Shown: positions 52,704-52,996 of the stretch, piece after piece
Numbering within the stretch: the stretch's first letter is position 1
How the letters are laid out: each line of letters begins with the position of its first letter
Source: Escherichia coli
GTDB lineage: Bacteria; Pseudomonadota; Gammaproteobacteria; Enterobacterales; Enterobacteriaceae
Assembly (NCBI RefSeq): GCF_051903065.1
Contig: NZ_CP178438.1
DNA: 64,000 nt
Direction: 5' to 3' (one strand)
Translations under genes and position numbers: made by a program
The notes under the pieces: model-generated
Seen by the model: the letters and a program-made list of their open reading frames with translations, nothing else
Told to the model about the DNA's origin: nothing
Databases searched by the model: none

Positions 52704-52996
52704 AAATGTCTCCCTGTTTTTTTATGGCTTATGCAGTTTGCCATCCATGACGGAACGATACCGTATCCGCCTGTTTAGGTGTGGGCGATTGTAACAGCAC
52801 GTCAACTGATGTCCAGACGCCCTGATTTGCTGATTTGATCATAGCCTGGTAATCGCCGCCCTGTAGGCTACTTGATTCTATAGAAACAGAAAAAGGCAAT
52901 CGCGGCCTTTTCTTCATTTTCAGAGTAACTCCCGCCAGTTGCGAGCAAAAAAGCCGCTACGCTTTAGCTATACGTGCTAATTCAAGAGAAGAGACC

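Follow-up and report, generated by a model that had tools for sequence, protein, structure and literature searches.

A rare 62-codon open reading frame upstream of mlaA in Escherichia coli is very probably a chance frame over the mlaA promoters and leader

The 62-codon open reading frame (ORF) on the minus strand just upstream of mlaA in the E. coli stretch analysed here (64 kb of contig NZ_CP178438.1, hereafter the window) is, with a probability that we put at roughly 0.93, a non-functional chance open frame over the mlaA control region, and the DNA beneath it is regulatory and not a gene. This reading draws on allele frequencies, the loss of the frame elsewhere, the substitution pattern, promoter motifs and mapped transcription start sites (TSSs), all observed here or reported in the literature. 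Selection would act on the DNA and RNA elements under the ORF, namely two sigma-70 promoters and the leader hairpins, and not on a peptide. The distal promoter P2 (-10 TATGAT) starts transcription at 52831 and the proximal promoter P1 (TGGACA-16-TG-TACAAT) at 52780. The first part of the mlaA 5′ UTR under the ORF would contain a 5′-proximal stem-loop, and another hairpin lies directly ahead of the Shine-Dalgarno sequence. Two accidents keep the frame open here: a G for A in the Escherichia -35 hexamer (TGGACA vs TAGACA) removes an in-frame stop, and a TAG-to-AAG change at codon 2 in a rare lineage joins the frame to the upstream ATG. A first-pass annotation had suggested that the ORF could be a small leader or regulatory protein, or else a product of chance in the promoter region of mlaA. 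The second proposal gained support, as the two mlaA promoters and part of the leader lie under the ORF. The first is not supported, given an unconserved frame, the lack of purifying selection, a codon-2 stop in 99.6% of genomes and an ATG located upstream of the TSSs.

The gene order at the locus is yfdF, mlaA on the minus strand, a spacer of 293 bp (52704-52996), yfdC on the plus strand and the argW tRNA (Table 1). Because mlaA and yfdC are divergently transcribed, the spacer must carry both promoter regions. The 501 bases around the ORF are 100% identical to E. coli strain ECNB21-M121, and in the aligned 321 nt over the spacer the window strain differs from K-12 at four positions, all upstream of both mlaA promoters. 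A block that belongs neither to the ORF nor to the mapped mlaA promoters, TAAAGCGTAGCGGC in the minus-strand reading (52953-52966), lies 31-44 nt upstream of the yfdC ATG, is almost invariant in more than 20 enterobacterial genera and may be a yfdC promoter or operator.

Several observations concern the wider neighbourhood. The yfdF-like ORF downstream of mlaA (50524-51555, plus strand) encodes 343 aa here vs a 1059-nt (352-aa) gene in MG1655, and is called only a hypothetical protein in the annotation of the identical strain; the yfdF/mlaA spacer is given as a "promoter island" in a published promoter-island table (PMC3661553). On the other side, argW (tRNA-Arg, 54005-54076, an Rfam match) is flanked by a 223-aa integrase fragment (54228-54899, plus strand) that has the arm-binding and central domains and lacks the catalytic domain. 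The integrase appears to have been truncated through an IS insertion, because a 322-aa DDE transposase (54945-55913, minus strand) directly follows it on the opposite strand. At this tRNA K-12 has the CPS-53 prophage, with a content different from that of the island seen here.

Table 1. Positions of the ORF and of the surrounding elements in the window.
Feature	Position	Strand	Remarks
mlaA (vacJ) CDS	51948..52703	-	251 aa
mlaA Shine-Dalgarno, GGGAG	52710..52714	-	6 nt before the mlaA ATG
Leader hairpin 2, ATGGC-N11-GCCAT	52724..52744	-	almost invariant, without covariation; spans the ORF stop codon
62-codon ORF	52729..52917	-	very probably an open frame due to chance; rare as a full-length allele
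Leader stem-loop 1 (5′-proximal), GGCGGA...UCCGUC	52749..52771	-	putative; under ORF codons 49-57
TSS1, proximal mlaA start	52780	-	77-nt 5′ UTR; 8 nt after TACAAT; PMC3415461, entries listed
P1, proximal promoter	52788..52815	-	-35 TGGACA (52815-52810), 16-nt spacer, TG-extended -10 TACAAT (52793-52788)
TSS2, distal mlaA start	52831	-	128 nt upstream of the mlaA ATG; 7 nt after TATGAT; PMC3415461, entries listed
P2, distal promoter, putative -10 TATGAT	52838..52843	-	within block CCAGGCTATGATCA, conserved across genera
Weak terminator-like hairpin GAAAAGGCCGCGATTGCCTTTTT	52890..52912	- (seen on both strands)	begins 5 nt after the A of the ORF ATG
GGAG upstream of the ORF	52932..52929	-	11 nt upstream of the ORF ATG; not conserved outside Escherichia
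yfdC, formate/nitrite-transporter family	52997..53929	+	bounds the spacer; transcribed divergently from mlaA

As a string, the ORF is what the first-pass annotation had described: the ORF listing with its translation gives an ATG at 52917 (-214 relative to mlaA) and a TAA stop at 52731..52729, the quoted 62-codon translation was reproduced, and the GGAG reported about 11 nt upstream of the ATG was found at its place. The ORF does end just upstream of mlaA as stated, but the distance between its stop and the mlaA ATG (52703) is 25 nt and not 26 bp. A spacing of 11 nt between GGAG and ATG exceeds the usual optimum, although it is not impossible. Frames of this size are common, with 215 ORFs of at least 62 codons in the 64-kb window, most of which are not genes. 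When the 293-bp mlaA-yfdC spacer was shuffled with preservation of dinucleotides, an ORF of at least 62 codons appeared in 720 of 5000 shuffles (14%), and an ATG-start ORF of at least this length in 318 of 5000 (6%). Given that 14% of the spacer shuffles match or exceed it, the length of the ORF is not statistically remarkable.

The full-length ORF is also rare within the species. Exact 30-mers spanning codon 2 were searched in 5426 complete E. coli genomes. The K-12-type 30-mer, in which codons 1-2 read ATG-TAG as in MG1655, was present in 5094 genomes, and an O157-type flank with one flanking SNP, likewise ATG-TAG, in another 308. Codon 2 is therefore the stop TAG in 5402 of 5426 genomes (99.6%), K-12 included. 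The ATG-AAG 30-mer of the window occurred in 17 of the 5426 genomes, and at least one more genome carries AAG together with a neighbouring SNP, so that the 62-codon ORF is intact in fewer than one in 200 E. coli genomes. Strains with the ATG-AAG allele include ECNB21-M121, 14EC033 and O157:H7 TR01. Since 99.6% of the genomes stop at codon 2, the 62-codon ORF is a rare T-to-A derivative at this codon; what is left open in most strains is a stretch of 56 codons with a TTG start. The codon-2 alleles TAT, AAT and CAT gave no exact 30-mer match among the complete E. coli genomes, to which the low-complexity filter may have contributed, and were seen only outside this set, in E. coli SCPM-O-B-8794 and E69, in cryptic Escherichia lineages and in E. 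albertii.

For the comparison between species, the mlaA locus and its upstream region were taken from the genomes of 80 species, among which a homologous ORF of 56-62 codons is confined to Escherichia. The orthologous frame was followed by anchoring on the conserved P1 -10 hexamer. Of the 74 loci from outside Escherichia, 66 allowed this anchor to be placed, and the frame is broken in all 66. Most of these have an in-frame stop inside the -35 hexamer, usually TAGACA elsewhere vs TGGACA in Escherichia, with no ATG upstream of that stop, and the 3′ end of the frame often continues into mlaA without a stop. Depending on the genus, the conserved block CCAGGCTATGATCA is translated as YQAMIK or as LPGYDQ; reading the same block in different frames shows that conservation acts at the level of DNA and not of a peptide. 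Even within Escherichia the start varies: E. whittamii has ATA, E. albertii has TGA as its codon 4, and Escherichia sp. MOD1-EC7003 has TAG as its codon 2. All eight Escherichia sequences, E. albertii included, are open from codon 7 up to the stop.

In the gap-free alignment of the eight Escherichia sequences the variable sites are spread 12/13/15 over codon positions 1/2/3. Codons 7-62 of the ORF have a dN/dS of 1.35 against E. albertii, compared with 0.02 in mlaA, and when this stretch is read in its two alternative frames the values are 0.88 and 0.58. The "synonymous" divergence of the ORF (0.10) is far below that of mlaA (0.58), which indicates constraint at the nucleotide level as expected of regulatory DNA. 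Two of the checks that had been proposed for a real small protein, conservation of the frame in related species and analysis of synonymous substitutions, thus went against it: the frame is lost in 66 of 66 placeable non-Escherichia loci, an outcome that the first-pass annotation itself had named as refuting, and with a dN/dS of 1.35 and sites at 12/13/15 there is no sign of purifying selection.

Database and annotation evidence agrees with this picture. The ORF peptide matched no Pfam family apart from a sub-threshold chance match (E = 0.23), and no NCBIfam model. Nothing is annotated between mlaA and yfdC in the curated K-12 record NC_000913.3, in which validated small proteins are included, and the RefSeq PGAP annotations of the sampled genomes likewise hold no gene there. 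Exact look-ups of the 62-, 56- and 37-residue versions returned only automated "hypothetical protein" calls from Escherichia and Shigella. At least 1000 contigs carried the 56-residue form and a few dozen a 62-residue form, in agreement with the allele counts. The ribosome-profiling and TSS data considered here all come from K-12, which lacks the full-length (AAG) allele. The excerpted K-12 ribosome-profiling sORF list of Stringer et al. 2021 holds no entry at 2,465,0xx-2,465,3xx or for mlaA/yfdC, and the excerpted supplements of the "Cryptic Bacterial Microproteome" study do not mention mlaA or yfdC, both weak negatives for a strain without this allele.

One could still suppose that the frame encodes a recently born, Escherichia-restricted small protein of 56-62 aa, weakly translated from an unmapped transcript or from read-through. 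A frame open from codon 7 to the stop in eight of eight Escherichia sequences, the GGAG 11 nt upstream of the ATG and the automated calls in many genomes would fit such a de novo protein. However, an open frame across such similar sequences is expected by chance, 99.6% of the E. coli genomes carry the stop at codon 2, a dN/dS of about 1.35 goes along with variation uniform over codon positions, and the curated K-12 small-protein annotation does not contain it; furthermore, neither the ATG nor the TTG is covered by a mapped TSS among the entries listed for K-12. We therefore regard a de novo protein as very improbable. The same slight odds apply to its narrower form, in which the frame of the AAG lineages would be a nascent Escherichia-specific proto-gene. 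Its 62-aa product, basic at the N-terminus, would be made from a transcript that reads through or that begins at an unmapped upstream site. If this were true, the AAG lineages would be an instance of gene birth caught over a promoter region.

The chance-frame reading accounts for the conserved sequence through the promoters of mlaA. Genome-wide TSS profiling of MG1655 lists two mlaA starts with 5′ UTRs of 77 and 128 nt in the entries of its supplementary file 2 (Kim et al. 2012, PLoS Genet, PMC3415461), and the 51-nt sequences given there upstream of both starts are identical to the window. The proximal promoter P1, which matches the consensus at 10 of 12 positions, is highly conserved across genera and lies inside the ORF, was the sole sigma-70-type promoter that a consensus scan found in the region. 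TATGAT is probably the -10 hexamer of P2, since the mapped start follows it at 7 nt. The ORF thus covers P1 and P2 together with the initial two thirds of the 77-nt 5′ UTR, the shorter of the two. In the multi-genus alignment the conserved blocks are the P2 -10, both hexamers of P1, the leader and CAGGGAGA at the Shine-Dalgarno sequence. For a sigma-70 promoter and 5′ UTR of mlaA, hexamers with appropriate spacing, a mapped TSS and conservation across genera are all present, whereas for a small-protein gene a conserved frame, purifying selection, a start on a detected transcript and a known family are all absent.

These starts also determine which part of the ORF is transcribed together with mlaA. 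According to the K-12 entries listed, the ORF ATG lies upstream of both mapped TSSs, 86 nt upstream of the distal one, and the mlaA transcripts contain only the last 52 nt (from P1) or 103 nt (from P2) of the ORF. The only internal ATG of the ORF (codon 26) sits in the P2 -10 hexamer. With both TSSs downstream of the ORF ATG and the internal ATG in the P2 -10, no mlaA transcript mapped in these entries has an in-frame ATG. The entries listed by Kim et al. 2012 (PMC3415461) give no other TSS for the locus in K-12, and none for Klebsiella or for yfdC.

Further upstream in the multi-genus alignment, a TAGAAT block and a AAAGCGTAGCGG block are conserved too. The first, TAGAAT or TAAAAT (52875-52880, minus strand, about 170 nt upstream of mlaA), is a -10-like hexamer conserved across genera for which the Kim et al. 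2012 entries list no TSS; it could be a third, condition-specific mlaA promoter, the transcript of which would again start downstream of the ORF ATG. The weak terminator-like hairpin GAAAAGGCCGCGATTGCCTTTTT has a stem with only three G-C pairs and flanking T/A runs, and its stem was not seen in other genera when the alignment was inspected by eye. It is situated between two divergent genes, a place where a terminator is unexpected.

The position of the ORF stop 25 nt before mlaA and a strongly conserved leader that contains ATG triplets might instead suggest a regulatory leader peptide or uORF, encoded by the 62-codon ORF or by a mini-ORF in the leader and controlling mlaA by attenuation or translational coupling. 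For the long ORF this is difficult to reconcile with the transcripts, since by the listed TSSs its start is absent from the mlaA mRNAs and it is not contained in the 5′ UTR, and with the excerpted K-12 sORF study, which reports no sORF at its coordinates. No terminator/antiterminator pair follows the ORF, no terminator-like site lies between its stop and mlaA, and the leader hairpins have no following U-run. Mini-ORFs in the leader, for example ATG GAT GGC AAA CTG CAT AAG CCA TAA, were considered and rejected, given that neither their start codons nor their peptide sequences are conserved: Enterobacter, Lelliottia and others have ACG or TCG in place of the first leader ATG, the second ATG gives different peptides and lengths by genus, and, read from the sequence, no Shine-Dalgarno motif precedes either. 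We consider control of mlaA by a leader peptide to be highly unlikely. Least credible of all is a decayed remnant of a small gene that was functional in an enterobacterial ancestor, since the nucleotide blocks conserved under the ORF across more than 20 genera, which could be taken in its favour, coincide with promoter hexamers, TSSs and UTR hairpins, the frames differ by genus, no protein family is matched and no genus outside Escherichia has an intact homologue.

In the 5′-proximal stem-loop of the mlaA leader, 80% of the cells in the alignment are paired, and six of eight pairs are changed on both sides; for both leader helices together the value is 87.5%, vs 22-46% when the partners are slid by one to three columns. 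Compensatory changes in this stem-loop are seen in several genera, for instance CGGA/UCCG in Escherichia vs CGAGG/CCUCG in Huaxiibacter. Because the structure was specified by hand, drawn by eye from the same sequences that were used for the pair counting, its covariation is no more than suggestive. RNAalifold, run on a MAFFT alignment of 28 genera, found only the ATGGC/GCCAT hairpin, and an Rfam scan of 51500-54500 with E values up to 1 returned only the argW tRNA and two chance matches, with no RNA family under the ORF. Hairpins at the 5′ terminus usually protect an mRNA from 5′-end-dependent decay. The stem-loop is a candidate mRNA-stabilising or regulatory element, and the two leader hairpins may serve mRNA stability or the access of sRNA and Hfq.

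We conclude that the ORF should not be annotated and that the "hypothetical protein" calls made repeatedly for this locus are artefacts. The map of the mlaA control region obtained here may aid the study of how the maintenance of outer-membrane lipid asymmetry is regulated in E. coli. Its elements, namely the two promoters, the hairpins of the leader and the ribosome-binding site with its complementarity to ArcZ (see below), are ordinary and for the most part already known.

The ORF resembles validated E. coli small proteins, such as those found by Ribo-RET/Onc112 profiling, and the leader peptides of attenuators in its size, its intergenic position and a purine-rich motif upstream, but unlike them it has no start codon on a mapped transcript, no frame conservation, no purifying selection and no entry in the excerpted K-12 ribosome-profiling list. 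Automated calls such as c2891 of CFT073, UTI89_C2631 and ECBD_1310 represent the same locus called as a 56-codon (TTG-start) or 37-codon version; these are predictions only, dropped by current RefSeq/PGAP and by the curated K-12 record. The mlaA promoters and 5′ UTR of MG1655, as given in the listed entries (PMC3415461), show no difference from the window, with both starts inside the ORF.

The ribosome-binding site of mlaA, finally, can be compared with a known sRNA target. In hypervirulent K. pneumoniae, ArcZ pairs with the translation-initiation region of mlaA, the translation of which it represses (Nat Commun 2024, PMC11322559). ArcZ is encoded in E. coli too, and its seed UUUCCCUG shows complementarity to CAGGGAGA, which does not vary among the 28 genera of the alignment; the Shine-Dalgarno part of this site lies downstream of the ORF stop. 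The mlaA translation-initiation region and the CAGGGAGA/UUUCCCUG complementarity of the Klebsiella system are thus also found in E. coli, although with one seed pair fewer (AACAGGG vs ACCAGGG). A whole-length prediction of the ArcZ/mRNA duplex was no better than shuffles. With restriction to the seed, the predicted duplex reached -22.4 kcal/mol for E. coli, where 0.087 of the shuffles were at least as good, a marginal difference, and -25.4 kcal/mol for K. pneumoniae, where this fraction was 0.026. By analogy with Klebsiella, in which direct pairing has been demonstrated, ArcZ may control mlaA in E. coli as well.
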